Shown here one piece after another: positions 3,114 through 20,000 of a stretch of DNA of 20,000 bases. A model generated the notes under the pieces. It searched no databases, was not told the origin of the DNA, and saw nothing but the letters and a program-made list of their open reading frames with translations. Origin of the DNA: an uncultured virus (IMG/VR IMGVR_UViG_2675903165_000002) (lineage: Duplodnaviria > Heunggongvirae > Uroviricota > Caudoviricetes). Made by a program: the position numbers and the translations under genes. Positions within the stretch are counted from its first letter, which is position 1. Each line of letters begins with the position of its first letter. The DNA lies in the IMG/VR virus record IMGVR_UViG_2675903165_000002, one strand, 5' to 3'.

Positions 3114-3116
3114 AAC

Positions 3117-4169: not shown

Positions 4170-7100
4170 TGGAAAAGAAAATACTTCAAAATATATTATC
4201 GAAGCCCTTTGTGCTTTCCGACTGGCTGACTTTATTGACAGATGTTTTCGGTGTAAAAAACTTTCTTCAAAACCCTGCTGAAATCCCTTTACCAAGCAAC
4301 AACAAAGCCGAAGCTGCTTTTGAGTTGGGTAGTTTCAGTACGGCTGACGATAGAATTATTGGGTTGTATTTGGTAAAGGTAAAACCCGAAGTTTGGTTGG
4401 AGCGCAACAAAGTGGGTTTAAGGGAATTACTACGTTCTGTTTACAAAAATGAGGTGGACGGTGCTTTAATTGTATTCGAGCAAGCTGATAAATGGCGTTT
4501 GAGTTTTGTAAGCGAAATTCGTACTTTGGACGAGTATGGGCAAATTGTTGAAAACCAAACGCAACCCAAACGATACACCTATCTTTTAGGCAGTGGTCAA
4601 AAAGTAAAAACCCCCACCGACAGACTATGTGCCATTGCAGGTAAAAAAGCAAAACTTGAGGATATTAGAAGTTTATTTTCTGTTTCAACGCTCACCAAAG
4701 AGTTTTACAACGAACTCTTTAAATGGTACGAATGGGCATTGTCGGAGGAAATAGGTATTACCTTTCCTAAAAATACAAGTACCGCAGACGACGACCGCGA
4801 AAAGTTGGAAGAACAAATTATTCGCCTCATTACTCGTTTGCTTTTTGTATGGTTCATCAAACAAAAACAGTTAGTGCCACACAATTTATTCGACAAAGAA
4901 CAACTAAAATCCATACTAAAAGACTTTAATCCAAACGACAACAATAACGGGAGCTATTACAATGCTATCTTGCAAAACCTGTTTTTTGCCACACTCAATA
5001 AATCCGTTACTGAACGTGCTTTTGCCAAAGACGAAAATAACAGAGATGTAAAAACATTGTATCGCTATGCAGAAATGTTTGATATTGAAGAAGCGGAAGT
5101 TTTAAATCTATTCTGCAAAATTCCTTTTTTGAATGGCGGTTTATTTGAATGTTTGGACAAAGAAGCATCAACCGACGGCGTAAAATATCATTTAGACGGC
5201 TTTAGTCGAAACGATAGGAAAGTAAGAGGGCAATTCAGCCACCGTGCATACATTCCCAACTGCGTTTTCTTCGACGAAAACAAGGGCATTATTCCACTAT
5301 TGGAACGCTACAATTTTACCGTAGAAGAAAATGCGCCCGAAGATGTGCAAGTGGCTCTTGACCCCGAACTCTTGGGTAATGTATTTGAAAACCTTTTGGG
5401 TGCATACAACAGCGAAACCAAAGAATCTGCCCGTAAGCAAAGCGGAAGTTTTTACACACCCCGCGAGATTGTGGATTTTATGGTAAGCGAAAGTTTGCAG
5501 ACCTATTTGAACGAAAAAATTGGCGATGTTGATTTGAACGGACAACTGACCGATGAACAAAAAAAGAAAATTTACAATACCTTACTCAAAGTAAAAATCC
5601 TTGACCCAGCCTGCGGTTCTGGTGCTTTTCCAATGGGAATTTTGAACGGCATCATTGCCTTGCTCGAAAAAATTGGCGTGGCACAACACTTGGATATGTA
5701 CCAGCTAAAACTACACCTGATTGAAAACTGTATTTATGGTGTGGATTTACAAACCATAGCGGCACAAATAAGCAAATTGCGTTTCTTTATTTCGCTTATT
5801 GTGGAACAAGGGGAAATGGATTTGAGCAAAGAAAATTACGGTGTCATTACTTTACCTAACTTGGAAACCAAATTTGTAGCGGCAAACACCTTACTTGGGC
5901 TGCCTAAAAGGCAAGCTCAGATTGATTTGTTTGAAGACCCAGCCATAGAAACAACTAAACAGGAAATTTTTGCAGTGCGCCACGAACATTTTTACGCCAG
6001 AACAGCCAAAGAAAAGCGGCAACTACGCGATAAAGACGAAAAATTGCGTAAGAAGTTAGTGCAGTTGTTAGAAAACAACCATTCACTTAACCATGAAGAT
6101 GCAAAAAAAATAGCTGAATGGAATCCTTATGACCAAAACTCAAGTTCTGATTTTTTTGATGTAGAATGGATGTTTCTTTTAAAGGATGGCTTTGACATTG
6201 TAATTGGAAATCCACCTTATTTTTCACTATCAACAGATAGCATCTACTTAGATGATAAAACAGGGAAAAGGATAAAACACAACAGAATTTATGAACCTCA
6301 GGGCTTCAAAGTTTTTTCTAATTCTGGCGACATCTATTCTCTCTTTTATGAAAAAGGTTGGCAAGTGATAAAAGAAAAAGGCCACTTGTGTTTTATTACT
6401 TCCAACAAATGGATGCGGGCAGGCTATGGCGAAAGTACACGAAAGTTTTTTGCTGAAAATACCAACCCCGTATTACTGATTGATTTTGCAGGGCAAAAAA
6501 TATTTGAAAGTGCCACAGTTGATGTAAATATTTTACTGTTTAGCAAAAGTAAAAATCAACAAAAGACACTTGCTTGCATTGTTAAAGAAAAGGTGTTAAA
6601 TAATTTGAGCGTTTTTGTTAGACAACAAGGCTCAGAATGTGGTTTTTTAGGAAAAGAAAGCTGGACAATTCTTAGCCCAATTGAGCAAAGTATTAAACAA
6701 AAAATAGAAGCTGTTGGCACACCCCTCAAAGATTGGGATATAAATATTTATCGTGGAATTTTGACGGGCTACAACGAAGCATTTATAATTGACGGAAGCA
6801 CTAAAGACAAACTGGTAAAAGAAGACCCAAAATCTATCGAAATTATAAGACCGATTTTACGTGGGCGCGATATTAAGCGTTACGGCTATGAGTATGCAGA
6901 CCTTTACCTGATTGCTACTTTTCCAAGCCTTAAAATTGATATAGAACAGTATCCTGCCGTAAAAAAGCATCTGCTTTCGTTTGGAATGGAACGTTTAGAG
7001 CAAACAGGAAAAGAGTACAAAGTAAATGGCGAAACTATAAAAGCTCGCAAAAAAACCAACAATAAATGGTTTGAAACGCAAGATAGCATAAGTTATTGGG

Positions 7101-7507
7101 ACGATTTTAATAGGCAGAAAATCGTGTGGAAACGTGTTGGTTCAATTTTGCGATTTTCATACGATGAAGCGGGAACAATGGCTTTGGATAGTACTTGTTT
7201 TGCAACGGGAAAATATATCAAGTTTTTGGTTGGTGTTCTCAACTCTAAAATGGGACATTATTTGATGAAAGATGCGCCACAAACAGGAACAGGAGATTTA
7301 TTGATAAGCGTCCAAGCTATTGAGCCACTCAAGATTCCTATTCCTGATACAAATACAGAGCAGTCCATTAGTAAACTAATAGAAGAAATCTTGCATAATA
7401 AAAAACATGGATTAAGTTCGTATGAGTTAGAGCATAGACTTGATAATGTAGTATACGCTTTATATAACCTTGAAAAAACAGAGATTGATTTTGTTAATAT
7501 TCTGTAA
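4169..7507 (+). CDS. Type IIG/Eco57I-like N6-adenine DNA methyltransferase with TaqI-like C-terminal target recognition domain (currently expressed allele)
   Basis: FLNGGLF, LDPELLGNVFENLL, GSFYTPREIV, SAM-binding ILDPACGSGAF, catalytic IVIGNPPY, FITSNKW, C-terminal TRD-type segments (RGILTGYNEAF, ILRGRDIKRY, VLNS). Confidence 0.9.
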   Translation: MEKKILQNILSKPFVLSDWLTLLTDVFGVKNFLQNPAEIPLPSNNKAEAAFELGSFSTADDRIIGLYLVKVKPEVWLERNKVGLRELLRSVYKNEVDGALIVFEQADKWRLSFVSEIRTLDEYGQIVENQTQPKRYTYLLGSGQKVKTPTDRLCAIAGKKAKLEDIRSLFSVSTLTKEFYNELFKWYEWALSEEIGITFPKNTSTADDDREKLEEQIIRLITRLLFVWFIKQKQLVPHNLFDKEQLKSILKDFNPNDNNNGSYYNAILQNLFFATLNKSVTERAFAKDENNRDVKTLYRYAEMFDIEEAEVLNLFCKIPFLNGGLFECLDKEASTDGVKYHLDGFSRNDRKVRGQFSHRAYIPNCVFFDENKGIIPLLERYNFTVEENAPEDVQVALDPELLGNVFENLLGAYNSETKESARKQSGSFYTPREIVDFMVSESLQTYLNEKIGDVDLNGQLTDEQKKKIYNTLLKVKILDPACGSGAFPMGILNGIIALLEKIGVAQHLDMYQLKLHLIENCIYGVDLQTIAAQISKLRFFISLIVEQGEMDLSKENYGVITLPNLETKFVAANTLLGLPKRQAQIDLFEDPAIETTKQEIFAVRHEHFYARTAKEKRQLRDKDEKLRKKLVQLLENNHSLNHEDAKKIAEWNPYDQNSSSDFFDVEWMFLLKDGFDIVIGNPPYFSLSTDSIYLDDKTGKRIKHNRIYEPQGFKVFSNSGDIYSLFYEKGWQVIKEKGHLCFITSNKWMRAGYGESTRKFFAENTNPVLLIDFAGQKIFESATVDVNILLFSKSKNQQKTLACIVKEKVLNNLSVFVRQQGSECGFLGKESWTILSPIEQSIKQKIEAVGTPLKDWDINIYRGILTGYNEAFIIDGSTKDKLVKEDPKSIEIIRPILRGRDIKRYGYEYADLYLIATFPSLKIDIEQYPAVKKHLLSFGMERLEQTGKEYKVNGETIKARKKTNNKWFETQDSISYWDDFNRQKIVWKRVGSILRFSYDEAGTMALDSTCFATGKYIKFLVGVLNSKMGHYLMKDAPQTGTGDLLISVQAIEPLKIPIPDTNTEQSISKLIEEILHNKKHGLSSYELEHRLDNVVYALYNLEKTEIDFVNIL
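6607..6625 (+). repeat. Left 19-bp inverted repeat (putative invertase crossover site) inside the MTase coding sequence
   Basis: GAGCGTTTTTGTTAGACAA at 6607-6625 is the exact reverse complement of 9271-9289; flanking bases mismatch on both sides. Confidence 0.88.
6839..7122 (+). repeat. Left copy of perfect 284-bp inverted repeat in the middle of the TRD
   Basis: Base-by-base comparison shows 6839-7122 is the reverse complement of 8774-9057; encodes EIIRPILRGRDIKRY...WDDFNRQKI. Confidence 0.93.
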
Positions 7508-7742: not shown

Positions 7743-8604
7743 GAGTATGTTTAAAAATTAAGTATTGTGATTATCTAAAACGATTGAGTATAATTTGGAT
7801 ATTAGTCCACAAAATCCAGTTTTGGGAACTTTTCGCTGTTTTTTCATAATCTTTAGCAAGCCTACGAAAGAAATTATGCCAAGCAAAAGTTCTTTCCACT
7901 GCCCACCGCCACTTGACGGGAACAAATCCTTTCCTGCTGGGCGGTACAGCACTACACTCTACTGCTAAACCAAGTATATTAGCTTCTACCCATTGCATAA
8001 ATCCTTTTTTGTAGGCCGCATCCACCAGTATTTTTTGCATCCTATCTAAATAACCCAAACAGTGTTCTACCAGTAAATGAGCCTTTTGACTGTCATGGCT
8101 GTCTGCTCCATGAACAACCACCCCCCAAACTAAACCAAGCGTATCTACTATCACGTGTCTTTTTCGACCATTGATACACTTATTCCCATCAACACCTTTG
8201 TCTTTACTGACAAAAGGAGATACTTTTATAGATTGACTATCAATACTGAATAAACTCGGGATAGCCTTTTTCCCTTGCCGTTGGCGTTCGAGTTTATTCA
8301 GTTCGCTATTGATTCTTTCTAAGGTGCCATCTTTGCCCCATTTGGCAAAATAATAGTAAACCAATGGCCATGGGGGATAACAAGTTTCCAAATTACGCCA
8401 TTGCGTCCCTTTCCGAAGAATGCTCAAAATACCATTGACAACCGCACGCAAAGAATATTTGCGCTTTCTTTGCTGATTCAATATTTTACTGATAATTTCC
8501 CACGCGGTATCGGATAAATCTTTAAAACAGGTTTGCATTTTACTTTCATGTTTGGTCACTAAAAGTAAATTATCCGATACCCTTTTTTAAATTTAAACAT
8601 ACTC
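7743..8604 (-). mobile_element. IS5 family, IS1031-group insertion sequence (862 bp)
   Basis: 13-bp terminal inverted repeats GAGTATGTTTAAA (7743-7755) / TTTAAACATACTC (8592-8604), 3-bp TAA target duplication (7740-7742 and 8605-8607), single transposase ORF. GAG ends and TWA duplication match the IS1031 group. Confidence 0.92.
7771..8559 (-). CDS. IS5-family DDE transposase (start may be the ATG at 8538)
   Basis: DLSDTAW, GTQWRNL, VYYYFAKW, IDSQSIK, GRKRHVIVDTLG, LVDAAY, RWAVERTFAW, RRLAKDYE. Confidence 0.93.
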   Translation of the reverse strand: MTKHESKMQTCFKDLSDTAWEIISKILNQQRKRKYSLRAVVNGILSILRKGTQWRNLETCYPPWPLVYYYFAKWGKDGTLERINSELNKLERQRQGKKAIPSLFSIDSQSIKVSPFVSKDKGVDGNKCINGRKRHVIVDTLGLVWGVVVHGADSHDSQKAHLLVEHCLGYLDRMQKILVDAAYKKGFMQWVEANILGLAVECSAVPPSRKGFVPVKWRWAVERTFAWHNFFRRLAKDYEKTAKSSQNWILWTNIQIILNRFR

Positions 8605-8773
8605 TAAATACCCCAAAAGGGTAGAGTTTAAAAGTAACCAAAGATATTCTAAATCTTTACCAACTAAAAAATAGCAATCATTGCCAAAGAAAAAGTTCTT
8701 ATCGTTATCTAATGCAAAACGGGGGAAATTATTTTCGTTGCTTTTAGCAATTCTCATAATTCCTGGATAGATA

Positions 8774-9057
8774 ATTTTCTGCCTATTAAAATCGTCCCAA
8801 TAACTTATGCTATCTTGCGTTTCAAACCATTTATTGTTGGTTTTTTTGCGAGCTTTTATAGTTTCGCCATTTACTTTGTACTCTTTTCCTGTTTGCTCTA
8901 AACGTTCCATTCCAAACGAAAGCAGATGCTTTTTTACGGCAGGATACTGTTCTATATCAATTTTAAGGCTTGGAAAAGTAGCAATCAGGTAAAGGTCTGC
9001 ATACTCATAGCCGTAACGCTTAATATCGCGCCCACGTAAAATCGGTCTTATAATTTC
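8774..9057 (-). repeat. Right copy of perfect 284-bp inverted repeat (in silent TRD cassette)
   Basis: Reverse complement of 6839-7122; also explains the identical shadow ORFs 6904-7089 and 8807-8992. Confidence 0.93.
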
Positions 9058-9270
9058 TTCACTTTTGGGGTCTTGCGCAATGAGTTCTTTTCGCTTTGAG
9101 CCATCAATGATGAAAGCCTCATTAAAACCTGTTTTTATTCCATAATTGATTTGAATATCCCAGTCCTTTAACGGTGTTCCTATTCTCTCAATTTTTTCTT
9201 TTATGCGTTGTTCAATGTCAGAAAGAATAACCCAGCTATCGGCATTATTGAAACTACCCAGATTTCCTGC

Positions 9271-9289
9271 TTGTCTAACAAAAACGCTC
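9271..9289 (-). repeat. Right 19-bp inverted repeat (putative invertase crossover site) marking the start of the silent TRD cassette
   Basis: TTGTCTAACAAAAACGCTC; similarity to the MTase stops immediately outside it; lies about 100 bp upstream of the serine recombinase. Confidence 0.88.
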
Positions 9290-9386
9290 TTTTAGTTGTA
9301 TAAAATAATTGTCTAAGTTTTTTCTATACAATTTTGGTTTAAATTAAGCAGTTGAATGTAATATTAAGTTAAACAAGAAAAACATT

Positions 9387-9983
9387 ATGATTTACGGTTA
9401 CATTCGGGTAAGCACCGACAAACAAACAGTAGAAAACCAACGCTACGAAATCAATCAATTTTGCCAAAACAATGTATATGTAGTAGATAAATGGATTGAA
9501 GAAACCATTTCGGGAGCTAAAAATCTACAAGACCGAAAACTTGGCAAACTTTTAAAACGAATGAAAAAGGGCGACATTCTTATCTGCTCCGAGCTTTCAC
9601 GTTTGGGCAGAAATTTGTTAATGATTATGGGCATACTTAACGAATGTATGAACCGCGACATTCAGGTTTGGACGATAAAGGATAATTATCGTTTGGGTAG
9701 CGACATCAACTCAAAAGTATTGGCCTTTGCCTTTGGTCTTTCAGCAGAAATAGAGCGCAACTTAATTTCGCAAAGAACAAAAGAAGCCTTGGCGCGAAAA
9801 AAAGCGGAAGGCGTAATTCTTGGCCGTCCCAAAGGACGAAAATCATCGAAAACCAAACTTACAGGACAGGAAAAAAAGATAAAGGACTTATTGGATAAAA
9901 AAGTTTCTTATTCAGCCATCGGCAGGATATTGGGTGTACACAGGCTTACGGTCAGTAGTTTTGTGAAAGCACAAACAGAATAG
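9387..9983 (+). CDS. mpi: Small serine recombinase/DNA invertase, Mpi-like family
   Basis: MIYGYIRVSTDKQTVENQR (catalytic Ser), ELSRLGRNL, WTIKDNYRLG..INSKVLAFAFGLSAEIERNLISQRTKEALARKKAEGVILGRPKG, C-terminal HTH; recognised as close to Bacteroides Mpi-type invertases. Confidence 0.85.
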   Translation: MIYGYIRVSTDKQTVENQRYEINQFCQNNVYVVDKWIEETISGAKNLQDRKLGKLLKRMKKGDILICSELSRLGRNLLMIMGILNECMNRDIQVWTIKDNYRLGSDINSKVLAFAFGLSAEIERNLISQRTKEALARKKAEGVILGRPKGRKSSKTKLTGQEKKIKDLLDKKVSYSAIGRILGVHRLTVSSFVKAQTE

Positions 9984-10090
9984 GTAATCAAATTGAATGA
10001 AGGCAAAATTCTTTTCCCAAGAAAGTAGAAGCAGCCAACAGATTTTTAGAAGGTGCAACATTCAAAACCCCATTGAAATCAAAACCACTC

Positions 10091-10121
10091 ACCGCCAGCG
10101 CAACCCGTTGGCGGTTTTTTT
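10091..10121 (+). terminator. Intrinsic terminator downstream of the invertase
   Basis: Stem ACCGCCAGCG / CGTTGGCGGT (one G-U), loop CAACC, followed by a T run. Confidence 0.75.
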
Positions 10122-10122
10122 A

Positions 10123-10157
10123 TGTCCTTTTTCTCCTTCTATTTCCCTTTAGCTTGC
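10123..10157 (+). promoter_or_regulatory. TGTCCTTT-N19-TAGCTTGC motif, putative promoter-like element (copy 1)
   Basis: Same bipartite motif and same terminator-adjacent position as 16163-16198; second half resembles the Bacteroidota -7 box TAnnTTTG. Confidence 0.4.
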
Positions 10158-10160
10158 ACC

Positions 10161-11399
10161 TTACAATCCTAACAACCTGTTACTCATTTCTTTTCGGGTA
10201 TCGTCCTCAAAACTGGCCAAATAGACTTCTGTGATGGTGGTATTGGTATGTCCCAAACTTTCACTAATGTATTCTATGCTTGCCCCTGACCGCTTCAATA
10301 CTGTTGAGAAACTATGCCGCGCCGTGTAGGTAGTAATATGCTTACTGATACCTAATTCTTGCCCAACCTGCTTCATAAATCTATTGATGGTGGAGACGAT
10401 ATTGTGGGTTTTAACTGCCCTCTTCAATGGTGATTGTTGGTCATTATAAAAAGGAAAAATATAAGTATTGGGTAAGCAGGGTTTCTGTCCCCAACGGGCA
10501 ATAATATCTTGGGCAATGGCTGGCAAATGAGCCTGAATTAAGCGTGGGTTGCTACGGAGCTTATTAGCTGTTTTTTGTCTCATAAAGGTTAGCCTATCGC
10601 CATCTATATTGCTATATTTGAGGTTGCATATATCTTTTACGTTTATCCCATTGCACAGATAAGAAAAGACCCACAAGTCTCGGGCTAAAGCCTCTTTTCC
10701 TTGTGGGTCTTGTGGGGTGTAATGTATAATTTTCATAATATCAGCGAAGGGCAAGGCTTTTTTGATATTGACGGATGTTAAGGGTTGGTATTTTTTTCTT
10801 CCAAAGGGGTAGAAATCTTTTGAAACAATACCGTCTGCCATGGCAGCATTAAAGACGGTACGAATAGAGGTTGTATAAAATCCAATAGACCCCGCTTTGA
10901 GTCCTTTTATGAGTAGAGCCTCTTCGTATTTTTTCAAGAAGGCGGGAGTGATGTCCTCAAAATATAGATTTGTGCCAGCGTATTGCCGCAGGGAGTTGAG
11001 AGCGCAAGCAAATCCCCATGCAGATTTAATACGGCCTTCAGCAAATAGATTATCAATAAAAGATTGGAAGTAGTTTATGACCTTACGCGATACGACAGCA
11101 TTGTTACTTTTTCCATTGTATAGTTCCGTGAATCGCCTAAAAGTAAATACTCCCATAGACTTAAGTATGAGTTGTGCTTTATGCTCTATGGCCGTTATTT
11201 TAATTTTGAGCTCTTTAAGTTGTCCGCCGCGCACGGAGGTGGTTTTGAGCTTGTCCCAATCAGCTACTGAAACATATTCTGCAATGCTGATATATTGTCT
11301 TTCTTTTCGATAAGTAATGCGTAATTTAAGAGGGAAAGTTCCATCGACTTTTTGCCTTCTTCTGTCGATAACGACGGCAATTGTTGCAGTGTTTTCCAT
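10161..11399 (-). CDS. Tyrosine site-specific integrase (N-terminal arm-binding domain, SAM-like core-binding domain, catalytic domain)
   Basis: N-terminal DGTFPLKLRITY..ERQYI arm-domain pattern; catalytic region FSYLCNGINVKDI, FMRQKT, TYTARHSFST, ISESLGHT, TEVYL. No IntI-type insertion recognised. Confidence 0.9.
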   Translation of the reverse strand: MENTATIAVVIDRRRQKVDGTFPLKLRITYRKERQYISIAEYVSVADWDKLKTTSVRGGQLKELKIKITAIEHKAQLILKSMGVFTFRRFTELYNGKSNNAVVSRKVINYFQSFIDNLFAEGRIKSAWGFACALNSLRQYAGTNLYFEDITPAFLKKYEEALLIKGLKAGSIGFYTTSIRTVFNAAMADGIVSKDFYPFGRKKYQPLTSVNIKKALPFADIMKIIHYTPQDPQGKEALARDLWVFSYLCNGINVKDICNLKYSNIDGDRLTFMRQKTANKLRSNPRLIQAHLPAIAQDIIARWGQKPCLPNTYIFPFYNDQQSPLKRAVKTHNIVSTINRFMKQVGQELGISKHITTYTARHSFSTVLKRSGASIEYISESLGHTNTTITEVYLASFEDDTRKEMSNRLLGL

Positions 11400-11439
11400 G
11401 ATATTTACGATAAAATGTAAGATTTGTGTAATGCGTAAA

Positions 11440-11890
11440 TATACAAATAGTACAATAAAATATCAAAGAAAAACGGAATAATTATTATAATAAATAGCTA
11501 TAAATCAGATGATTAGTAAATTTGTGCAAACAATGAAAAAATAAGTAAAATTACATTTTGCCCAAATGGGTGATTGCTCTAAAAATGTATAAATAAATCT
11601 AAATAAGCATGTGTACGGAGAGTATTTAAAACTGCTCAGTATAAAGCTTTGTTAGACACGAGTAATATGATATTTTGAGTAAAAACTTTTCTTTGACGTA
11701 AAAAATCGTATTACTTTTGATACACTATTTGATACATGGTGTAGTAAAATAGCGCAAAAAAGTAATAATGTAGAGGAAAGAAAAATTCGTTATTGCATTG
11801 TAAATCAATGTATTATGATAGTATTGTAAAATAGCGAAAATATAACTATCCCTTCTTAAAAATAAAATATAAAAATATTTGCAAATATTC
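11440..11890. promoter_or_regulatory. AT-rich putative att/recombination-control region with IHF-consensus sites and short direct repeats
   Basis: WATCAR-N4-TTR matches at 11503-11515 and 11803-11815; TTTGATACA at 11716 and 11728; GTAAAATAGCG at 11744 and 11826; perfect palindrome AATATTTGCAAATATT at 11874-11889. Confidence 0.4.
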
Positions 11891-12003
11891 TATCTGTTTA
11901 AGATTTTGCGTGAGAATGGCAGGCAAGGTGCTTGCAGAATGGAAAAGATAAACGCAATAAGGTGTGTTTATACAAATGTTGTGCATAATTAAACGAAACA
12001 GAA

Positions 12004-12741
12004 ATGTCAGATAACAAAGAAAATAAAGCTAACTGGAAGCCCACAGATAAAAGATTTGTAGCATTTTTAGATATATTGGGTTTTAAAGACTTGGTTATGA
12101 GAAATACCCATGATGAAATATATCAAATATTAAATCAAATATCAAAAAGCAAAAAATTAATAGAAGAAGCCACAAAGTTTGAAGAAATTTCAAAGGTATT
12201 TGGTGATGTTGAAGTTTATGTAGTAAGCTTTTCAGATTCTATTGTAATCTTTTCAAAAAACGATAGTATTGAAAATTTCAAATATTTTCTATTAGCGACT
12301 AGGTGGTTTTTTACAGGTGCATTTAATAAACAAATACCTATAAAAGGAGCAATGGCACACGGTGAAATTAGTTTGAATAAGAAGGAACAGATTTATTTTG
12401 GGCAACCAATAATTGATGCTTATTTAATGGAAGAAGATGTGAATTATATGGGCATTGTCGCTCATAATAGTATTGACAATTATATTTCAAAAATTGAAGA
12501 AGAATCAGTTCTAAAGAGTATTGAGAGATTGTTGTTTGAAGAAAAAACTCCACTAAAATGTGGTAGCTTGACTCATACAAATCTCAATTGGTTCAAGATA
12601 ATTAAGAAAACCGATGAAGAGTTTAATATTCAGTATTTAAAATCTAAGATTAATTTATTCAAAAAAACGACATCTGGTACTGCAAGAAAATATATTGATA
12701 ATACTTTTAATATCTTAGAAAAAATAGAGGGTAGTTTATAA
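12004..12741 (+). CDS. Class III nucleotide cyclase-like protein (cassette 1)
   Basis: FVAFLDILGFK (first Asp), SFSDSIVI (second Asp), IKGAMAHGEI, YFGQPIIDAYLME follow the adenylate/guanylate cyclase motif order; product unknown. Confidence 0.6.
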   Translation: MSDNKENKANWKPTDKRFVAFLDILGFKDLVMRNTHDEIYQILNQISKSKKLIEEATKFEEISKVFGDVEVYVVSFSDSIVIFSKNDSIENFKYFLLATRWFFTGAFNKQIPIKGAMAHGEISLNKKEQIYFGQPIIDAYLMEEDVNYMGIVAHNSIDNYISKIEEESVLKSIERLLFEEKTPLKCGSLTHTNLNWFKIIKKTDEEFNIQYLKSKINLFKKTTSGTARKYIDNTFNILEKIEGSL

Positions 12742-12742
12742 A

Positions 12743-12869
12743 TTAACTATGCACAACACACAATATAGCCAATAAGGGTTTCAGTGGTATGCGAAGGTTT
12801 GTAGCCCCCTTCAATTTTTCGTGTACCATGATAGGAAATCGCCCGCAATCCCTTACTGGCCAGTTAGCA
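12743..12869. repeat. attC-like site 1 (shortened right arm)
   Basis: TTAACTATGCACAAC (12743-12757) complements the cassette 1 start GTTGTGCATAATTAA (11978-11992); inner stem GCCAATAAGGG (12768-12778) / CCCTTACTGGC (12850-12860); next GTT at 12863. Confidence 0.75.
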
Positions 12870-12895
12870 GCAAGCTTAAAAAAACAAAGCAATCT

Positions 12896-13786
12896 ATGAG
12901 AATTTTTATTAGTTGGTCAGGAGACGTAAGTAAGCAAATAGGAGAAGCCATTAAAGATTGGCTACCCGCTGTGTTACAAAATGTCAAACCCTATTTTACT
13001 CCAAATGATATTGAAAAAGGAGCACGCTGGAATGCAGATATTTCAAAAGAATTAGAGCATTGTAAGTTAGGAATATTTATATATACAAAGGATAATATTG
13101 ACAGCCAATGGATGTTGTTTGAAGCAGGTGCAATTAGTAAAATGTTGGACAATTCAAAAGTTTGTCCCATTTTGTTTGGGCTAGACAATGCTGATTTTAA
13201 AGGACCACTTACACAATTTCAAACGTCACAATTTCAAAAGACAGATTTTAGAAAATTAGTTTACTCAATCAATAATAGTCTTTCTGAACAAAAACTAGAG
13301 GAAAAAGTATTAGATGAAGTTTTTGAAATGTGGTGGCCAAAACTTGAAAATAAGGTTAATAAACTTTTAGATGCTAATAAGGTAGAAAACATTGCTGTTA
13401 GAAATGACCGAGAACTTCTTGAAGAAATACTTGCGATTTCTAGAATTACAGCAAAACGTACAATAGAAACAGGTAAGTCAAACTCAAAAAGAAGATATAA
13501 TACAGAAGTTTATGAAAAACTTGTGTCGAGCTTTATTTTTGGAACAGAAACTATTTTTGAAATAGATTGGGAACATACCAAGTCTTGTTTAGAAGGTGAT
13601 AATCTTCAATACTTCGTTGCACAAAATGGGGACTTTTTAAATCCTAATGTAAATGATGAAGGAAATAACTGGGCTAATAGGGTTGGGTTTTTAGAATCTT
13701 ATCGAAAACTTAAGTCATTCATCGAAGAATATGGATTAAGAAAAAGAGATTCATATTTTGACCCTGAAAACGAACCTCCATTTTAA
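12896..13786 (+). CDS. TIR-domain protein (cassette 2), 296 aa
   Basis: MRIFISWSG...WLPAVLQ...DIEKGARW...WMLFEAGAISK with the conserved TIR Glu. Start placed at ATG 12896, inside the cassette, rather than 12821, which lies in the attC-like site. Confidence 0.85.
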   Translation: MRIFISWSGDVSKQIGEAIKDWLPAVLQNVKPYFTPNDIEKGARWNADISKELEHCKLGIFIYTKDNIDSQWMLFEAGAISKMLDNSKVCPILFGLDNADFKGPLTQFQTSQFQKTDFRKLVYSINNSLSEQKLEEKVLDEVFEMWWPKLENKVNKLLDANKVENIAVRNDRELLEEILAISRITAKRTIETGKSNSKRRYNTEVYEKLVSSFIFGTETIFEIDWEHTKSCLEGDNLQYFVAQNGDFLNPNVNDEGNNWANRVGFLESYRKLKSFIEEYGLRKRDSYFDPENEPPF

Positions 13787-13789
13787 TTA

Positions 13790-13931
13790 AAGCCTGCTGC
13801 TAACATGGGTATTTGCAATAGTGCGGCTTGAAGTTAAATGATCAACTTAGGTAATTTTATGTAACTTTAGTGCAAAACTCGGCTGACGGAATACTATTAC
13901 CGCACCATCGCAAATACCTAATCCGTTGCCT
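13790..13931. repeat. attC-like site 2
   Basis: AAGCCTGCTGCTAAC (13790-13804) complements the cassette 2 start GTTAGCAGCAAGCTT (12863-12877); inner stem GGTATTTGCAATAGTGCGG (13808-13826) / CCGCACCATCGCAAATACC (13900-13918), 17/19; next GTT at 13925. Confidence 0.82.
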
Positions 13932-13975
13932 GTAATTGTATACAGACTTCACTATAAACTGAATCACATAAAGTA

Positions 13976-14524
13976 ATGGACAAAATAATCAGCACAGAAC
14001 CTAATTGGATAATTACAACCTTAATTGGAACTGTTATTGGTTATTTATACCCTTACTTTATTAAAGGAATTATTTACATTGGCAGACTTCTCTTTACTAA
14101 ACATTATTTAACTGGACAATGGAATAGCTACTACCAAATTTGGGAGAATAATTTAGCAGTAATCAAACACGAAAAATGGACTGTATCATTAGGATACAAT
14201 AGCAAACTTAAAGTGAAAATAAAAACTGTAGCAGAAGGTAATTTGAATTATTCTGGAGAACTTACAGAAGAAAGGGGACATTTGATTGTAACATTAAAAG
14301 CTAAAGAATATGATGAGAGAGTATTTGGACGATACCCAATTCCAATTCCAAGTAATGACGCAACTGTTGTAGGACTTTGGTTGGGAGTTGATTTTAATGC
14401 ACACGCAACTGTTGGAGCAAACATACTTTCGAGAATAGAGCTTGACAATGAAAAAATAATAATTCTGTTAAGAGAATACACAGAAGTTGATACTGAAAAT
14501 GAAATGATAAGGCTAAAGCACTAA
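13976..14524 (+). CDS. Hypothetical membrane protein: N-terminal TM segment plus beta-rich domain (cassette 3)
   Basis: Hydrophobic WIITTLIGTVIGYLYPYFIKGIIYI, then LTGQWNSY (GxW) and alternating beta-strand patterns ending GLWLGVDF...ILSR. Confidence 0.7.
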   Translation: MDKIISTEPNWIITTLIGTVIGYLYPYFIKGIIYIGRLLFTKHYLTGQWNSYYQIWENNLAVIKHEKWTVSLGYNSKLKVKIKTVAEGNLNYSGELTEERGHLIVTLKAKEYDERVFGRYPIPIPSNDATVVGLWLGVDFNAHATVGANILSRIELDNEKIIILLREYTEVDTENEMIRLKH

Positions 14525-14544
14525 TTCAAGAAACATTTGACAAA

Positions 14545-14688
14545 ACAACTACAGGCAACATTGGGTTTGCTGCAATTTGGGCTTGACGTTGTAAGCATCA
14601 ACTTTTGTAATTCTATTGGGCATTTGTGCAAATGTTGGGCTGACGTTTTTCAAATACCCCACCATTGCCAATATGTGGATTGTTAGTT
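14545..14688. repeat. attC-like site 3
   Basis: ACAACTACAGGCAAC (14545-14559) complements the cassette 3 start GTTGCCTGTAATTGT (13925-13939); centre homologous to site 2 (GCTTGA.GTT...ATCAACTT..GTAATT.TAT...GTGCAAA...GGCTGACG); inner stem degenerate; next GTT at 14682. Confidence 0.75.
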
Positions 14689-14744
14689 GCAAGCATTGTG
14701 GGACAATTTTAACATAAAACTATTTAGAAGAAATAAACATTAGT

Positions 14745-15998
14745 ATGAGTAACCTTGACTTTTCAAAAATTGCTTCAAAAGTTTTGACTCAACAACTTGA
14801 GACACAAATCAAGGAATACAAAGTATTTTACAAGACGCATTTGCGAAATGTAAAAGACCGACAATTAGTTTTATCACAACTCGACAACCTTTGTATAAGG
14901 TTTCAAAAAATATCACAAAAAATAGATTTTCTTTCCGACCCAGAAAGATATAAACTTGAAGAAGAAACTGAAAAACTTTTAAAGAAGTATTTCAATAACG
15001 ATATTTTTGAACTTTATAACAAAAAAATACCAACCCCTGAAGCGAAGCGAAAAATCCCTAATCCTGAAAATAAATTTTGGCTTACAGTTCTTGACTCAGT
15101 TTATCAAGCTGTTGAAGTCACAGCAGAACAGGTAAAACAAGAATTGGTTTATAAGACAGACTTTGTTACTTTTCTAAATAACTGTTTACTGTATTTTGGT
15201 TTACATCCAAATATTTTAAAGAGAGATAATACTATTTATAAACGCTATAATTGTGTTTTAGAACATCACTTTAAATCACCAAAGATAAAGCAGACAGAGT
15301 CTAAAATTTTATTAAAGAAGGAAATCTTGCAAGCTGAATTTCTAACTCCATATGAAAAGAAATTGCCAATTAGAATAAATGGGAAACTAATTCCATTCGA
15401 GGACATTTATCAAATCAAAATCACTTCAACTATTTTACAAGATGACGAGATAGAACTGTTTGCTGCTAAAAATAAATTTACATGGACTGACAATTCTAAA
15501 GACTATGTTGCTTTCATAAATAATTGCCATGACGAAACCGAACAACTACATAATAATCCATATTTGATTGGCCAAGACAAAGAGAGATTTAGAAATCATA
15601 ATACTTTCTTTGTTCATCCAACAAGAATTTTGGAATTACAAAAGATAAAAAACAATAAGTTCGACCTAATAAAACTTATTCAACTATGTGAAGAATTAAA
15701 TAATGCTTCTTCATCAAAAAATCCATTTAGTTTAACTTTTCTAGCGAGAGCAATTATTGACCACACTCCACCGATATTTGGGTTCAGTAATTTTTCAGAA
15801 GTAGCAAATAATTATTCAGGTGGGACAAGAAGTTTTAAGAAATCAATGCAAAACTTAGACAATTCATTGCGTAATATTGCAGACAACAACATACATTCAC
15901 AAGTAAGAAAAAAAGAAGTCTTGCCAACCACAACTCAAGTTGATTTTACGCAAGAGCTTGACCTGCTTCTGAGTGAAATCGTGAGAATTTTAGAGTAA
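14745..15998 (+). CDS. Hypothetical protein with C-terminal helical HEPN/Abi-like domain (cassette 4)
   Basis: 417-aa ORF; C-terminal FDLIKLIQLCEELN...LARAIIDHTPPIFG...LRNIADNNIH has an R...H motif spaced longer than canonical HEPN Rx4-6H, so the domain call is tentative. Confidence 0.55.
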   Translation: MSNLDFSKIASKVLTQQLETQIKEYKVFYKTHLRNVKDRQLVLSQLDNLCIRFQKISQKIDFLSDPERYKLEEETEKLLKKYFNNDIFELYNKKIPTPEAKRKIPNPENKFWLTVLDSVYQAVEVTAEQVKQELVYKTDFVTFLNNCLLYFGLHPNILKRDNTIYKRYNCVLEHHFKSPKIKQTESKILLKKEILQAEFLTPYEKKLPIRINGKLIPFEDIYQIKITSTILQDDEIELFAAKNKFTWTDNSKDYVAFINNCHDETEQLHNNPYLIGQDKERFRNHNTFFVHPTRILELQKIKNNKFDLIKLIQLCEELNNASSSKNPFSLTFLARAIIDHTPPIFGFSNFSEVANNYSGGTRSFKKSMQNLDNSLRNIADNNIHSQVRKKEVLPTTTQVDFTQELDLLLSEIVRILE

Positions 15999-16021
15999 AC
16001 AACAACTTCGGACGAACGGTA

Positions 16022-16100
16022 GCACAGCCATCAACACACTTTTAGCATCAGGAAGGGTAACGTGCAAACTTGAGGTTCTGTACCTTCAATTTTCTACCTG
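16022..16100. repeat. Truncated/degenerate attC-like site 4 (left half only)
   Basis: GCACAGCCATCAAC (16022-16035) sits in the expected position after the stop, but only 6/11 bases complement the cassette 4 start GTTAGTTGCAA, and no right arm was found. Confidence 0.4.
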
Positions 16101-16130
16101 AATGCAAAGCCCGAAATCTTTTTGAAACCC

Positions 16131-16160
16131 GCCACCAACTTACCCAGTTGGTGGCTTTTT
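16131..16160 (+). terminator. Intrinsic terminator closing the cassette array
   Basis: Perfect 9-bp stem GCCACCAAC / GTTGGTGGC, 7-nt loop, TTTTT tail. Confidence 0.78.
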
Positions 16161-16162
16161 CT

Positions 16163-16198
16163 TGTCCTTTTGAGTGAATCAATCCACCGATAGATTGC
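16163..16198 (+). promoter_or_regulatory. TGTCCTTT-N20-TAGATTGC motif, putative promoter of the tape measure gene (copy 2)
   Basis: Ends 20 nt before the ATG at 16219; matches copy 1 at 10123-10157. Confidence 0.45.
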
Positions 16199-16218
16199 GC
16201 CATAAACTTTAATAGTTC

Positions 16219-19200
16219 ATGGCCTCTACCACTCAAGCACAATCACAGATTACCGTTATCACTGATGCCAAACAAAGCATCAATGAGTTAGGACGGCTGC
16301 AACTCAAAGCCGCCGATTTTGCCAAAGAAATCAAAGACTCCAAAAAGAGCTTTGATGAGTTCAATCGCTCCAGTACAGCCCTTTCCCGCATGGGCGAAGG
16401 CATCAAACGCCTTAGCATAGAAGCCGCTCAATTCAAGCAGGCAATGACCGCCAACAAAACGGCTGCCGAGCAATTCAGCAAGTCCACTGCTGATTTGGGC
16501 AAAGTAAACACCGAGCTAAAAAACCTCAAAAGCCAAGCCGCCGAACTCCGTACCGCCATCAAAGGTATGAAAGAAGGCACGGAGGAATACGCACGCGAAA
16601 ACGACAAGCTCACGGCCATCAAAACCAAAATAGAGTCCCTGAAGACTTCGGCCACGGCACTCAAAGCCCAAATGCTTGAGTCGAAAAATGCGGCCAAAGA
16701 CTTTGATAAAGCCAATGCAGGATTAGACAAAACGAATGCCACTTTAACCAAACTCACGGCCAAAGCCGATGACTTGGCAGCCGCTACGCTTCGAGCCAAA
16801 GCCGAAGCCGACAAATACAGTGCCGCCAAAGAAGGCTTTAAAGCCGTCAATGCTGAAATAGACAAGGAGCGCGAAAAATTGGGCGTGCTGGGCATGACCA
16901 TGAACCAAATGCTCAAGTACCAGAAGGATTTGAACGCGGCCATCAATACAGGAGCAGTCTATGGAACAGAACGCTACCAACAACTAAACACGAAACTTGT
17001 AGAGGTTAATGGCGCGATTCAGCAGCAGAAAAATGACCAAAAACGCTTGCAACAGGAAACAGGTCTTACTGTTGGTTCATTGCGAGAACTGGAAGAACAA
17101 GAAAAGCGATTAAACGCTGAGATTAAGAATTTAGGCATCAATACGAAAGAATTTGCGGCCAAAGCCCGCGAGCTTCGCACCGTAGAAAGCCAAATCAGTT
17201 CGGCAGAAAATAAACTCAAAGGTTTTGCGGGTTCGTGGGCAAACATGAAAAACAGCATCATGAATGTGGCGGGTGGTGTTATTGGTGGTACGCTGGCCTT
17301 GTCTGCTTTTCAGAAGTTGGCCGAGTTTATCCCCAACCTCATTTCTTCACAAGCCAAACTCTCGGACAGTTTCGCCGACATTCGCAAAACTACGAACATG
17401 AGCATTGAGGGCGTGAAGGAGTATAACAAACAACTTTCCCAACTCAATACCCGCACGGCCACCGAAGAGCTACGCAAAATTTCCATTATCGCAGGTCAGT
17501 TGGGCATAGACCAAACAAAGGTGTTTGATTTTACGGCTGCCGTTGATAAAATGGTCGTGGCTCTTGGTGATGAATTTACAGGCGGTGCGGAACAAATCAC
17601 CAAAGAAATGGGTGCGTTGCGCAACATCTTTTCCGACATCAAAACAGATAAAATTGATGAGGATATGTTACGCATCGGCAACGCCATCAATCAATTGGGT
17701 AGCGAAGGCGCAGCGACAGGGCCAGTAATGGCGGACTTCGCTTCGCGTATCGGTGGCGTTGGGGTTCAATTAGGATTGAGTTCTGGGCAAATATTGGGGC
17801 TTTCGGCCACCCTTCAGGAGTTGAACGTAAACGCCGAGCGTGGCGGTACGGCCATCGTTAAAATTTTACAACGCATGGCCTCGACACCAGAGGAGTTTGC
17901 CAAAGTTGCCCAAATGTCCGCCAAGTCCTTTACCGAACTCGTGGACAATGACATTTACGGAGCTTTGACCAGAGTCATTGAAAAGGCCAATGAATCAGGG
18001 GCAAGTGCTACGGTTTTAGCTTCTATCCTCAAAGAACTGGACGTGGACGGAGCAGGCGCAAGTGAGGTGTTTGCCAAACTTGGCGGAAATATGGATACGT
18101 TGGCCAAGAAAGTGGCCAGTTCCAACAGCGCGTTGAAAAGTACCGATTCCATCATGAACGAGTTTGGCATCAAAAACGAAAACTTTGCAGCCAAACTCGA
18201 AAAGTTGAGCAAGGCCATCAGCAAAATGTTCACGTTCCCAACGCTCAATAAAGCCATTGAAGATACCGTCGGTTGGCTGTATAAGTTACTGCCCGCCACC
18301 GAAAAATTTAGTGCTTCTCTCGAAAAAGAAGCCTACAATTTGGATAGTGCAACCATTGGCATCATGAGCCTCAAGGTAGGCACGGAAGAGCGCACCAGAG
18401 CCATCAAGGAATTGCAAGACAAATACCCCGACTATTTGGGTAATCTCAACGCCGAAACCGTCTCTAATGCCGAGCTGAAAAAATCCATTGACAACGTAAC
18501 CAATTCGCTCATTGAGCAAATTATTATCAAAAAGGCAATGGAAAAAGTGGACGAGCAAGCCAACAAAGCAGCAGAAGCCTACGCCAATTTGATGGAAAAA
18601 CGCAGAGTGGTACAAGACCGTCTCAATGATTATTTCAATCAAGAAAAAGGCAATACCGAAAAACACAATCAGTTACAATCTATTAAAAATCAGCTCATGG
18701 CTTCGGGAATGAGCTTGGAAAAACAATACGAGTTCATTCAGAGCGGACGTGTAAAAGAATTGCCGCGTTGGGGCGATGCTTATCATGAATTGGCTGGTTC
18801 TGTCATGTATTTGCGAATAGCCGAACAAGACTACAACAAGGAAGCAGAAAAAACACTTCAGTTTGAAAAAGAACGAACTGAAGTATATAAATCACTTGGC
18901 CGTAATGCCAATGGTGAAACCCCCGCCGAGATTGCCGCCCGCAAAAAAGCGGAAGAAGATGCCAAAAGGAAAGAAGAGGAGGACAAGTTAAAAGCCGCAG
19001 CCGCCCGTAAAAAAGCCCGTGAGGAGGCCGAGAAAAAAGAGCGTGATGACAACGCCAAAAAGAACAAGGCCGAAGCCGAAAAACGCGCCAAAGAAGCGTT
19101 GGAGGCAGAGCGTAAAATCATTGATTTACGTCTTAACCTGCTCAAAGATGAGCGCGAGCGCAAACGAGCCATTGCCACAGAGGAAAATCGCCGAGAAATC

Positions 19201-20000
19201 CAAGACTTTAAAATGTCAGCAGAAGACAAAGCCAAGCTATCTAAAACCGAGCGAGCCAAACGTAATGCGCAAGAGACAGCATTTGAAAAGCTATCTAAAC
19301 GAAAACTTGATGAAGAGCTGCACCAAATAGACACCGAGTATTACGAGAAAGCCCGCGAAGCCTACGAGAAGTTGCAAAAGGAAAAAGTAGAAGCCGCCAA
19401 GAAAGCCAAGCAACAGGAGTTGGACGATGCGACGGCCTTTGCAGAATTGCAAGTGCTTGTAACGCAAAAGGATACCGATGTGATGGGCTTTGAGGTGCAG
19501 AAAAGCGAAGGCATTATCCGAGAGCTAAAACGCCGAAAATACGCCGAGCTTGAAAACACCGAACTCACACAGGAGCAACGCCTTGCCATTACACAACGCT
19601 ATGACAAACAAATCAATGCGGTAGAAGTGGCAGGCCGTGCCACCAACGTAGAGGCACAAATCGGGCTACTCAATATCCAAATGCAAAAAGAGTTGGCCAA
19701 AGAGGAGCTGACTGAGAATGAAAAATATAACATTCAGGCCAAGTACATCGACAAAATCAACCAACTTCTTGACGAGCAGGAAAAACAGGAACAGGAGAAT
19801 ATTAAAAACAAGGTCATTGGTTTTGTAGATGCCTTCAAAACCATCATGGAAGGCATTAATGAACTCAATGCCATTGAAATTGATAATCAGTTCATTGAGC
19901 TTGATAAACTCAAGCAATACCAAGACCAGCAATACGAGAACAACAAGCAGCGATTAGGCAACCAGCTTGCGCAAGAAGAGGCCGCCAAAAATGCCCGTTT
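16219..20000 (+). CDS. Phage tail tape measure protein (TP901-like core), >1260 aa, runs off the window
   Basis: My translation from ATG 16219: MASTTQAQSQITVITDAKQSINELGRLQ..., coiled-coil N-terminus, core LSDSFADIRKTTNM...LNTRTATEELRKISIIAGQLGI...FTAAVDKMVVALGDEF, K/E/A-rich later part. Absent from the ORF track, consistent with no stop inside the window; many antisense shadow ORFs. Confidence 0.9.
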   Translation, partial: MASTTQAQSQITVITDAKQSINELGRLQLKAADFAKEIKDSKKSFDEFNRSSTALSRMGEGIKRLSIEAAQFKQAMTANKTAAEQFSKSTADLGKVNTELKNLKSQAAELRTAIKGMKEGTEEYARENDKLTAIKTKIESLKTSATALKAQMLESKNAAKDFDKANAGLDKTNATLTKLTAKADDLAAATLRAKAEADKYSAAKEGFKAVNAEIDKEREKLGVLGMTMNQMLKYQKDLNAAINTGAVYGTERYQQLNTKLVEVNGAIQQQKNDQKRLQQETGLTVGSLRELEEQEKRLNAEIKNLGINTKEFAAKARELRTVESQISSAENKLKGFAGSWANMKNSIMNVAGGVIGGTLALSAFQKLAEFIPNLISSQAKLSDSFADIRKTTNMSIEGVKEYNKQLSQLNTRTATEELRKISIIAGQLGIDQTKVFDFTAAVDKMVVALGDEFTGGAEQITKEMGALRNIFSDIKTDKIDEDMLRIGNAINQLGSEGAATGPVMADFASRIGGVGVQLGLSSGQILGLSATLQELNVNAERGGTAIVKILQRMASTPEEFAKVAQMSAKSFTELVDNDIYGALTRVIEKANESGASATVLASILKELDVDGAGASEVFAKLGGNMDTLAKKVASSNSALKSTDSIMNEFGIKNENFAAKLEKLSKAISKMFTFPTLNKAIEDTVGWLYKLLPATEKFSASLEKEAYNLDSATIGIMSLKVGTEERTRAIKELQDKYPDYLGNLNAETVSNAELKKSIDNVTNSLIEQIIIKKAMEKVDEQANKAAEAYANLMEKRRVVQDRLNDYFNQEKGNTEKHNQLQSIKNQLMASGMSLEKQYEFIQSGRVKELPRWGDAYHELAGSVMYLRIAEQDYNKEAEKTLQFEKERTEVYKSLGRNANGETPAEIAARKKAEEDAKRKEEEDKLKAAAARKKAREEAEKKERDDNAKKNKAEAEKRAKEALEAERKIIDLRLNLLKDERERKRAIATEENRREIQDFKMSAEDKAKLSKTERAKRNAQETAFEKLSKRKLDEELHQIDTEYYEKAREAYEKLQKEKVEAAKKAKQQELDDATAFAELQVLVTQKDTDVMGFEVQKSEGIIRELKRRKYAELENTELTQEQRLAITQRYDKQINAVEVAGRATNVEAQIGLLNIQMQKELAKEELTENEKYNIQAKYIDKINQLLDEQEKQEQENIKNKVIGFVDAFKTIMEGINELNAIEIDNQFIELDKLKQYQDQQYENNKQRLGNQLAQEEAAKNAR

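Follow-up and report, generated by a model that had tools for sequence, protein, structure and literature searches.

The clusters named rAID-1 (recombinase-associated acquired interbacterial defence; Ross et al. 2019, 10.1101/471110) were described in Bacteroidales, where a co-oriented XerD-like recombinase is followed by co-oriented genes of low guanine-plus-cytosine content (G+C) with repetitive, integron-like intergenic sequences. They are recognised by a 5′ co-oriented XerD-like recombinase that shares 44% identity or more with B. fragilis BF9343_RS08045 and by at least two co-oriented downstream genes with a G+C of at most 41% (10.1101/471110). In a 2025 preprint (PMC12247911), how rAID arrays are built is called ‘an area of active research’. 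Here we analyse 20,000 nucleotides (nt) of an uncultured virus of the Caudoviricetes (IMG/VR record IMGVR_UViG_2675903165_000002), referred to in its entirety as the window, together with the genome to which it belongs and a set of relatives. We read positions 11846-16155, with a probability of roughly 0.8, as a four-cassette array of a Bacteroidota integron-like gene-capture system of the rAID type that has been orphaned. An original prediction, made from the letters alone, had proposed a distinct gene-capture system at this place; a cassette array that follows integron logic and is independent of IntI was indeed found, but its architecture had already been published as rAID-1.

The array lies entirely on the plus strand. 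It opens with a platform module of roughly 130 nt (11846-11977), whose attI-like end runs directly up to the first GTT and which also has an AT-rich, promoter-like stretch and a pair of small hairpins. Each complete cassette then has the same layout: a head starting with TT, an open reading frame (ORF), a tail ending in AAC, and a loop, about 105-122 nt long, with G as its last base. Cassette 1 (11978-12862) comprises a head (11978-11992), an ORF for 245 amino acids (aa) without family assignment (12004-12741), a tail (12743-12757) and a loop (12758-12862), which is site S1 and carries an 11-nt deletion. In cassette 2 (12863-13924) the head (12863-12877) precedes an ORF for a TIR-domain protein (12899-13786; the ORF list begins it at an upstream GTG, 12821), a tail (13790-13804) and a loop, site S2 (13805-13924); the protein matches Pfam TIR_2 (1.3e-8) and the PADLOC ‘TIR-TM’ model PDLC03016 (4.9e-74). 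Cassette 3 (13925-14681) has its head at 13925-13939, an ORF for 182 aa with no family (13976-14524), its tail at 14545-14559 and its loop, site S3, at 14560-14681. Cassette 4 (14682-16093) has a head (14682-14696), an ORF for 417 aa, again with no family (14745-15998), and a collapsed site remnant (16021-16093). From these coordinates the unit lengths of cassettes 1-3 are 885, 1062 and 757, and the AAC-to-GTT gaps of sites 1-3 are 105, 120 and 122 nt. The ORFs, GTT positions, match counts and gaps of the original prediction were all reproduced on recheck.

The four co-oriented ORFs have a G+C of 0.27-0.32, the genome as a whole 0.424. A terminator-like hairpin at 16131-16155 marks the end of the array, and there the G+C of the composition profile climbs from 0.32 to 0.46. 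It is the sole plus-strand terminator-like site in 11400-16300, the scan of this interval having found none between the cassettes; this lone site fits transcription of the whole array from the platform. Rfam gave zero matches at E ≤ 1 in the same interval, and a DNA search of 40 relatives found no homologs of the window ORFs.

In each of cassettes 1-3, the 15-nt head counted from GTT agrees with the reverse complement of the cassette's own 15-nt tail at 14 of 15 positions, while head and tail pairs taken from different cassettes of the window agree at 7-11; the predicted offset complementarity, to the own rather than the neighbour's end, is thus borne out. The head of cassette 4 finds a best tail match of 9-10/15, i.e. 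it has no complementary tail. The single mismatch in cassettes 1-3 always falls at tail position 5, opposite head position 11.

A covariance model (R1) was built from nine sites alignable over their full length, from tail to head, and was scanned, as had been suggested, against the source genome and 151 sampled genomes from 22 families of the order. R1 sites were present in 78 of the 151 genomes and in 17 of the 22 families. Among 47 cassettes lying between consecutive detected R1 sites, the median complementarity to the own end is 14/15 and 34 reach at least 13, whereas 5438 non-own pairs have a mean of 7.67/15 and 0.3% of them reach 13 or more. The offset complementarity is therefore not due to chance. 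The tail and head that flank one and the same site (n=65) have a mean of 8.08 and a maximum of 12. When recombinase-adjacent arrays are added, giving 71 cassettes in 32 arrays, the median becomes 13/15, with 44 cassettes at 13 or above; all 71 sit between consecutive sites, on the same strand of their array. The mismatch is constant: among the pairs that agree at 11 or more positions, tail position 5 is mismatched in 40 of 40, with A in the head every time and, in the tail, C in 33, A in six and G in one. Of 112 heads, 110 carry A at position 11. AAC and GTT themselves are conserved, but just 10 of the 112 heads fit GTTRRRY, so that the cassette ends do lie outside the integron consensus, as originally noticed.

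Within the window R1 scores 71.3 bits for S1, 122.3 bits for S2 and 144.8 bits for S3, and the source genome holds 15 R1 matches at E ≤ 1. They include a site directly upstream of the window (C10:50529-50651), a three-site array on contig C15, with Hachiman, a PD-(D/E)XK protein and DUF3885 in this order, and a partial site on contig C7. The sites are 135-166 nt long, with a strongly conserved central core that is about 90% identical across orders. In the DNA search of 40 relatives, genomes from further families of this order gave S3 at 76-93% identity, and the core of its loop is 83-93% identical in other families. Plasmids of Emticicia oligotrophica, Riemerella anatipestifer and Empedobacter stercoris also carry this core, at 89-91% identity; on the Emticicia plasmid the core comes after a DUF262 gene with complementary head and tail. 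A phage collection searched with S3 gave no match. With filters off, the site 4 remnant scores 13.3 bits, 12 nt standing in place of 89 model positions, and its tail agrees with head 4 at 7/15 (counted by hand).

Comparison of related loci shows cassettes being gained and reordered. Two Runella loci, L104 and L105 (the latter from Runella salmonicolor S5), are 98.5-100% identical and differ by cassettes inserted at attI. In L105 cassette A is next to the attI-like end. L104 has two more cassettes in the interval from attI to A, and L105 has one of the two as well, at a distal position. Breakpoints fall at G|TT, with a 3-nt difference in one case. Cassette 1 of the window has a counterpart in a 997-nt contig from an independent biofilm metagenome (X2 record 11), which matches 11947-12862 with 17 differences (cassette 1, 98.1% identical); beyond the end of the match come 11 nt that are missing from the window, then GTT, then an unrelated head. 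Homology that ends at G/TT with different neighbours beyond, the test put forward with the original prediction, is therefore seen both for cassette 1 and in Runella, and in both cases the loop moves with the upstream ORF as far as GTT. S1-type loops 90-94% identical to that of the window occur in two genomes of another family, both with 11 extra nt before GTT; since the metagenome contig has these nucleotides too, S1 must have lost part of its stem. At the array ends, the first head has no loop in front of it, and in the C15 array the last tail has one behind it, which favours the GTT side as the crossover. The flanks of the C15 array were compared with 19 relatives of the same family, in which the DNA was too divergent to delimit an inserted unit.

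Two observations on array loci may be added. The L104 locus, from a Runella metagenome-assembled genome, contains at 8968-10208 a 1240-bp insertion with terminal inverted repeats and a 7-bp duplication (TTTTATC), absent in the sister strain; this is an insertion sequence within a cassette. In genome G020, direct repeats of about 260-275 bp and 88% identity (L015 8910-9200 and 14283-14560) flank a three-site array, as if the array had been inserted whole into a duplicated target.

In several relatives the arrays follow a dedicated recombinase. Genomes G106, G067 and G020 carry, directly upstream of their arrays and in the same orientation, recombinases of 352-354 aa with SAM_4 and catalytic domains, 67-72% identical to one another. 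Their closest solved relative is VchIntIA, but between aligned blocks they have 23 residues where VchIntIA has 66, and against TIGR02249 they reach 191-197 bits in two stretches, under the cut-off of 265. By sequence, the array-linked recombinase is related to IntI and Xer and is without the IntI-specific insertion. The best 80 recombinase loci were collected from a named genome collection; of the 36 with at least 2.5 kb of downstream flank, 20 have co-oriented R1 sites downstream. At a homolog threshold of E ≤ 1e-50, the 151 genomes divide into 47 with sites and a homolog, 31 with sites alone, 18 with a homolog alone and 55 with neither, a distribution in which kinship among genomes inflates any test. 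All ten genomes with a strong ortholog carry sites. Titled relatives of the recombinase belong to Cytophagales, Chitinophagales, Sphingobacteriales and Flavobacteriales. In a protein search, the best 120 relatives were all at least 69% identical and none was titled Bacteroides.

In G067 an SSB gene (L032 7109-7447) is situated between the array recombinase and the attI-like end, which is suggestive of a mechanism using folded single strands. More distant recombinase homologs (approximately 35% identity, 180-250 bits) are found inside or within a few kb of R1-type arrays, at L031 3472-4350 (G051) and at G083:C1:401886-402701; more than one recombinase subfamily may serve R1 sites.

The source genome belongs to the group with sites only. 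The scan with TIGR02249 confirmed the reported absence of IntI, its best match being 79.7 bits against a cut-off of 265. Three R1 sites and one remnant stand in a genome with no cognate recombinase, as in a cluster of attC sites lacking integron integrases (CALIN). Given this absence, the damage to site 1 and the collapse of site 4, the array is regarded as an orphan, the counterpart of a CALIN, and it looks partly decayed rather than active.

In the circular form of a cassette, its own tail and head flank the loop and form a 15-bp stem with one obligatory mismatch atop an imperfect hairpin. It can be proposed that the recombinase recombines one folded strand of the site, preferably the bottom strand, with attI, as IntI does. 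Cassettes would in this way enter beside the platform promoter, all in one orientation, and would be transcribed from it as far as the terminator at 16131. An orphan array such as the present one would be either frozen or served just in trans. Folding was assessed with DNA parameters and compared with shuffled sequences. With the own head restored, as in the circular form, the window sites reach z values of -1.2 to -5.6, and in 41 of the 43 circularised reconstructions the bottom strand folds more stably than the top, by a mean of 3.4 kcal/mol. A consensus RNA fold of the top strand of nine sites gave just 8 pairs and -0.12 kcal/mol; the structural signal arises solely with DNA parameters on circularised sites. 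In integrons it is the folded bottom strand that is recombined (PMC8876359), and the bias found here is parallel to this, its use in recombination being presumed.

The platform module is not confined to the window. An nhmmer profile built from 12 copies in the source genome gave 30 hits in this genome at E ≤ 0.01, 13 of them with at least 54 bits; the window copy scores 110.6 bits. Aligned copies diverge immediately after GTT. All 17 copies examined precede one to four ORFs, several of which are defence genes; the first ORF has a G+C of 0.27-0.38, and for three of the 17 the first cassette's own tail was located, at 13-14/15. In G067 and Runella, attI-like ends of similar form lie between the recombinase and the first cassette. 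The AT-rich part of the platform may be a Bacteroidota-type promoter, judged by the consensus. The dispersed copies, each a promoter with an attI-like end heading a short array of low G+C, are a new feature here; a distributed organisation of platforms was found described neither for integrons nor, in the available parts of the rAID-1 literature, for rAID-1. It is conceivable, although rather unlikely, that the platform has multiplied to give a distributed, multi-locus capture system, in which a small docking module proliferates and the enzyme is supplied in trans from plasmids, phages or neighbours. The platform array at C15:88255 has no recombinase in its flanks. A repeat of about 200 nt (L019 10261-10462, equal to C15:88260-88461, and at five other places of the genome) is found upstream of some platform copies and also alone. 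An 83-codon ORF upstream of the C15 platform was considered and set aside; it seems to be non-coding and part of a DNA repeat.

Could the array still be active in this genome, through the host's Xer-like recombinases (C20:163170-164000 and C38:124207-125031) or through a plasmid or phage enzyme acting in trans? This would agree with the intact S2 and S3 (122 and 145 bits), with the 31 of 78 site-bearing genomes that have no recombinase homolog at the threshold used, with the plasmid-borne members of the site family, with the relatives in the biofilm metagenome that hold cassette 1 in another context, and with the kinship of the array recombinase to Xer and IntI. We nevertheless think it unlikely, because the stem of site 1 is 11 nt short, what is left of site 4 is a collapsed remnant, the site on C7 is partial, the source assembly run (contigs) holds no variant joint, and nothing points to Xer proteins acting on such sites. 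That the locus is instead the remnant of a classical integron, a CALIN with divergent, IntI-dependent attC sites, is extremely improbable. The AAC...GTT boxes, hairpin sites, co-oriented promoterless cassettes and defence cargo are indeed all integron-like (PMC8876359 and 10.1101/2024.07.02.601686), but the genome has no IntI, the recombinases linked to such sites elsewhere fall below the TIGR02249 cut-off and have no IntI insertion, few heads fit GTTRRRY, and the paired boxes are 15 nt long with a fixed mismatch. We give equally little credence to the idea that each ORF is an independent inverted-repeat unit, an invertible segment or small transposon moved by an invertase or transposase, with the stretches of 105-122 nt as mere spacers. 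Head and tail are by their nature inverted repeats around each ORF, a Mpi-like serine invertase and an IS5 transposase lie nearby, and in one pair of genomes homology stops at AAC-A, before the loop; yet 71 of 71 scored cassettes lie on one strand within their array and between consecutive sites, in Runella as in the metagenome contig the upstream ORF is accompanied by the loop as far as GTT, the loops form a conserved, structured family linked to a tyrosine recombinase, and no target-site duplications were found around the cassettes.

A further candidate enzyme, overlooked in the original prediction, is a tyrosine recombinase of 412 aa encoded on the minus strand at 10161-11399, 580 bp from cassette 1 and divergent from the array. 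Its Pfam domains are Arm-DNA-bind_5, SAM_5 and Phage_integrase, i.e. the arm-binding, SAM-like and catalytic domains that also make up the IntCTnDOT-type integrases of CTnDOT and NBU1 (PMC8138268). It is very unlikely that this integrase is the array's own recombinase, in a distinct system with integron-like geometry. Its closeness, its divergent orientation, which is that of intI, and direct repeats between integrase and platform speak in its favour. However, two paralogs with 88% aa identity, at the ends of contigs C34 and C36, are not beside arrays, and their far sides (the end of C13 and the start of C15) run into ordinary genes without an array. The C15:88255 array, the sole other platform copy with flanks examined, has no adjoining recombinase; the few tyrosine-recombinase matches of the genome lie away from sites and platforms, by manual comparison of coordinates; arrays elsewhere follow a different, co-oriented recombinase family; and the integrase closes a defence-island block. 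The C34 paralog likewise closes a block of four large, co-oriented genes. From this block, and from the paralogs without arrays, the 412-aa integrase probably belongs to a separate defence-island element and is not the cassette enzyme; integrase and array as one unit was rejected, as the paralogs occur without arrays. The CTnDOT-type likeness thus concerns the neighbouring gene, whose paralogs flank defence genes, and not the array.

The preferred reading, an orphaned array of the rAID type, has to be held against several results that weigh the other way. Complementarity is below 13/15 in 13 of the 47 cassettes, and among the added recombinase-adjacent loci taken by themselves 10 of 24 reach 13; low complementarity accompanies long intervals, and we suspect that a site may have been missed there. 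In array context the three window sites fold no better than shuffled sequences (z -1.6 to +1.1); the imperfect hairpin of the original prediction is a fair description of site 2. A cassette shared by genomes G145 and G020, which belong to different families (L036 2-1392 and L018 3303-1912, 93% identical), is followed directly after AAC-A by unrelated loops; loop and upstream cassette are thus not in every case inherited together, and the loop may here have been exchanged at the left box. The array-type recombinase is absent from the source genome, which is 99.84% complete (the best tblastn match, 26%, is to Xer-like genes), and nothing points to activity of the array in this genome. The sequence runs consist of assembled contigs, in which circles and joints cannot show; no strand-changing joints were seen in these contig-level runs. 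Both the strand preference and the precise point of cleavage, whether inside GTT or next to it, are inferred. Finally, the link to rAID-1 is one of architecture and published description, not of recombinase sequence identity.

As regards architecture, the resemblance to rAID-1 is close. The G+C of the four ORFs lies within the limit of 41% for its short co-oriented genes. The 5′ co-oriented XerD-like recombinase is seen in relatives, though neither beside the window array nor in the assembly, and the intergenic repeats ‘reminiscent of integrons’ may have their counterpart in the conserved R1 sites, which in relatives stand behind a co-oriented recombinase. Like the R1 sites here, rAID-1 is present in roughly half of the genomes sampled from an order. 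In contrast, rAID-1 comes from gut Bacteroidales, to which this organism does not belong; its cargo consists of type VI secretion system immunity genes, where the cargo here is anti-phage defence; and the many dispersed platform copies have no equivalent in rAID-1 as described in the available text. What was available of 10.1101/471110 gives motif enrichment alone, and the cassette boundaries, the 15-nt offset complementarity and the fixed mismatch do not appear in it. A literature search, supplements apart, yielded rAID papers and integron reviews and no published cassette boundaries for rAID arrays.

With integrons and CALINs (PMC8876359 and 10.1101/2024.07.02.601686) the system has in common uniformly oriented, promoterless cassettes that follow a promoter in the platform, hairpin sites with AAC and GTT as their limits, G|TT junctions at both attI-like and cassette sites, a more stable bottom strand, frequent arrays without a recombinase, and defence genes as cargo. 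It differs from them in a recombinase that is co-oriented with the array and lacks the IntI insertion, in paired boxes of 15 nt with an obligatory mismatch instead of about 7 nt, in heads outside GTTRRRY, and in sites of 135-166 nt with a conserved central core. Comparison may also be made with the Xer-dependent dif modules of Acinetobacter plasmids, small modules with inverted sites that are moved by a Xer-type tyrosine recombinase. Those modules share single 28-bp sites, in alternating orientation; here the sites are hairpins of approximately 150 nt in one orientation behind a dedicated recombinase.

The window in itself is thus a modest result, an orphaned and partly decayed member of the rAID-type arrays with defence-type cargo (TIR-TM). 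On the reading preferred here, rAID-type arrays would represent a second, IntI-independent route to gene capture, and outside the gut Bacteroidales they would stockpile anti-phage defence genes, as chromosomal integrons do. The self-complementary 15-nt boxes, the fixed mismatch, the bottom-strand bias, the attI-like end, the G|TT junctions and the Runella reshuffling supply substrates for a recombination assay.

The window also contains, at 3-7507 on the plus strand, the tail part of a second, upstream array, coding for an HKD+SNF2 helicase, a PDC-S02/YhcG nuclease and a Type IIG restriction-modification enzyme. This array is headed by the platform copy at C10:49634, which is followed by an RNase H-like ORF and then by the R1 site at C10:50529-50651; it passes through a truncated tape-measure-like fragment (C10:50651-50830) into the window. 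Defence cargo elsewhere in the genome includes Hachiman, a GmrSD-like protein and a Type IIG restriction-modification enzyme. We infer that array cargo is mostly anti-phage defence, the window array contributing TIR-TM and three unknowns.

Some neighbouring features remain to be mentioned. Each of the three copies of the 412-aa integrase is preceded by a conserved region with an inverted repeat (11692-11867 in the window). At the start of contigs C34 (L025) and C36 (L026), some 800 bp resemble C10:48500-49253 at 74%, and variable, defence-type cargo lies between; this repeated arrangement of integrase and cargo hints at a defence-island element that recurs. A Type IIG C-terminal fragment on the minus strand (8593-8910) is located downstream of the full Type IIG gene (4169-7507), between the IS5 transposase (7771-8559) and the Mpi-like serine invertase (9387-9983). 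The region 7771-9983 has the look of a switch for phase-variable specificity, which the insertion sequence may have broken. After the array, a tape-measure-like gene (PhageMin_Tail) occupies 16219-19998, and the contig ends within it. Its paralog on C4 (L023, from about 14190 onward) is also preceded by a low-G+C block that ends in an R1 site, and the junction at the array end is similar before the tape-measure-like genes on C4 and at C10:50651.

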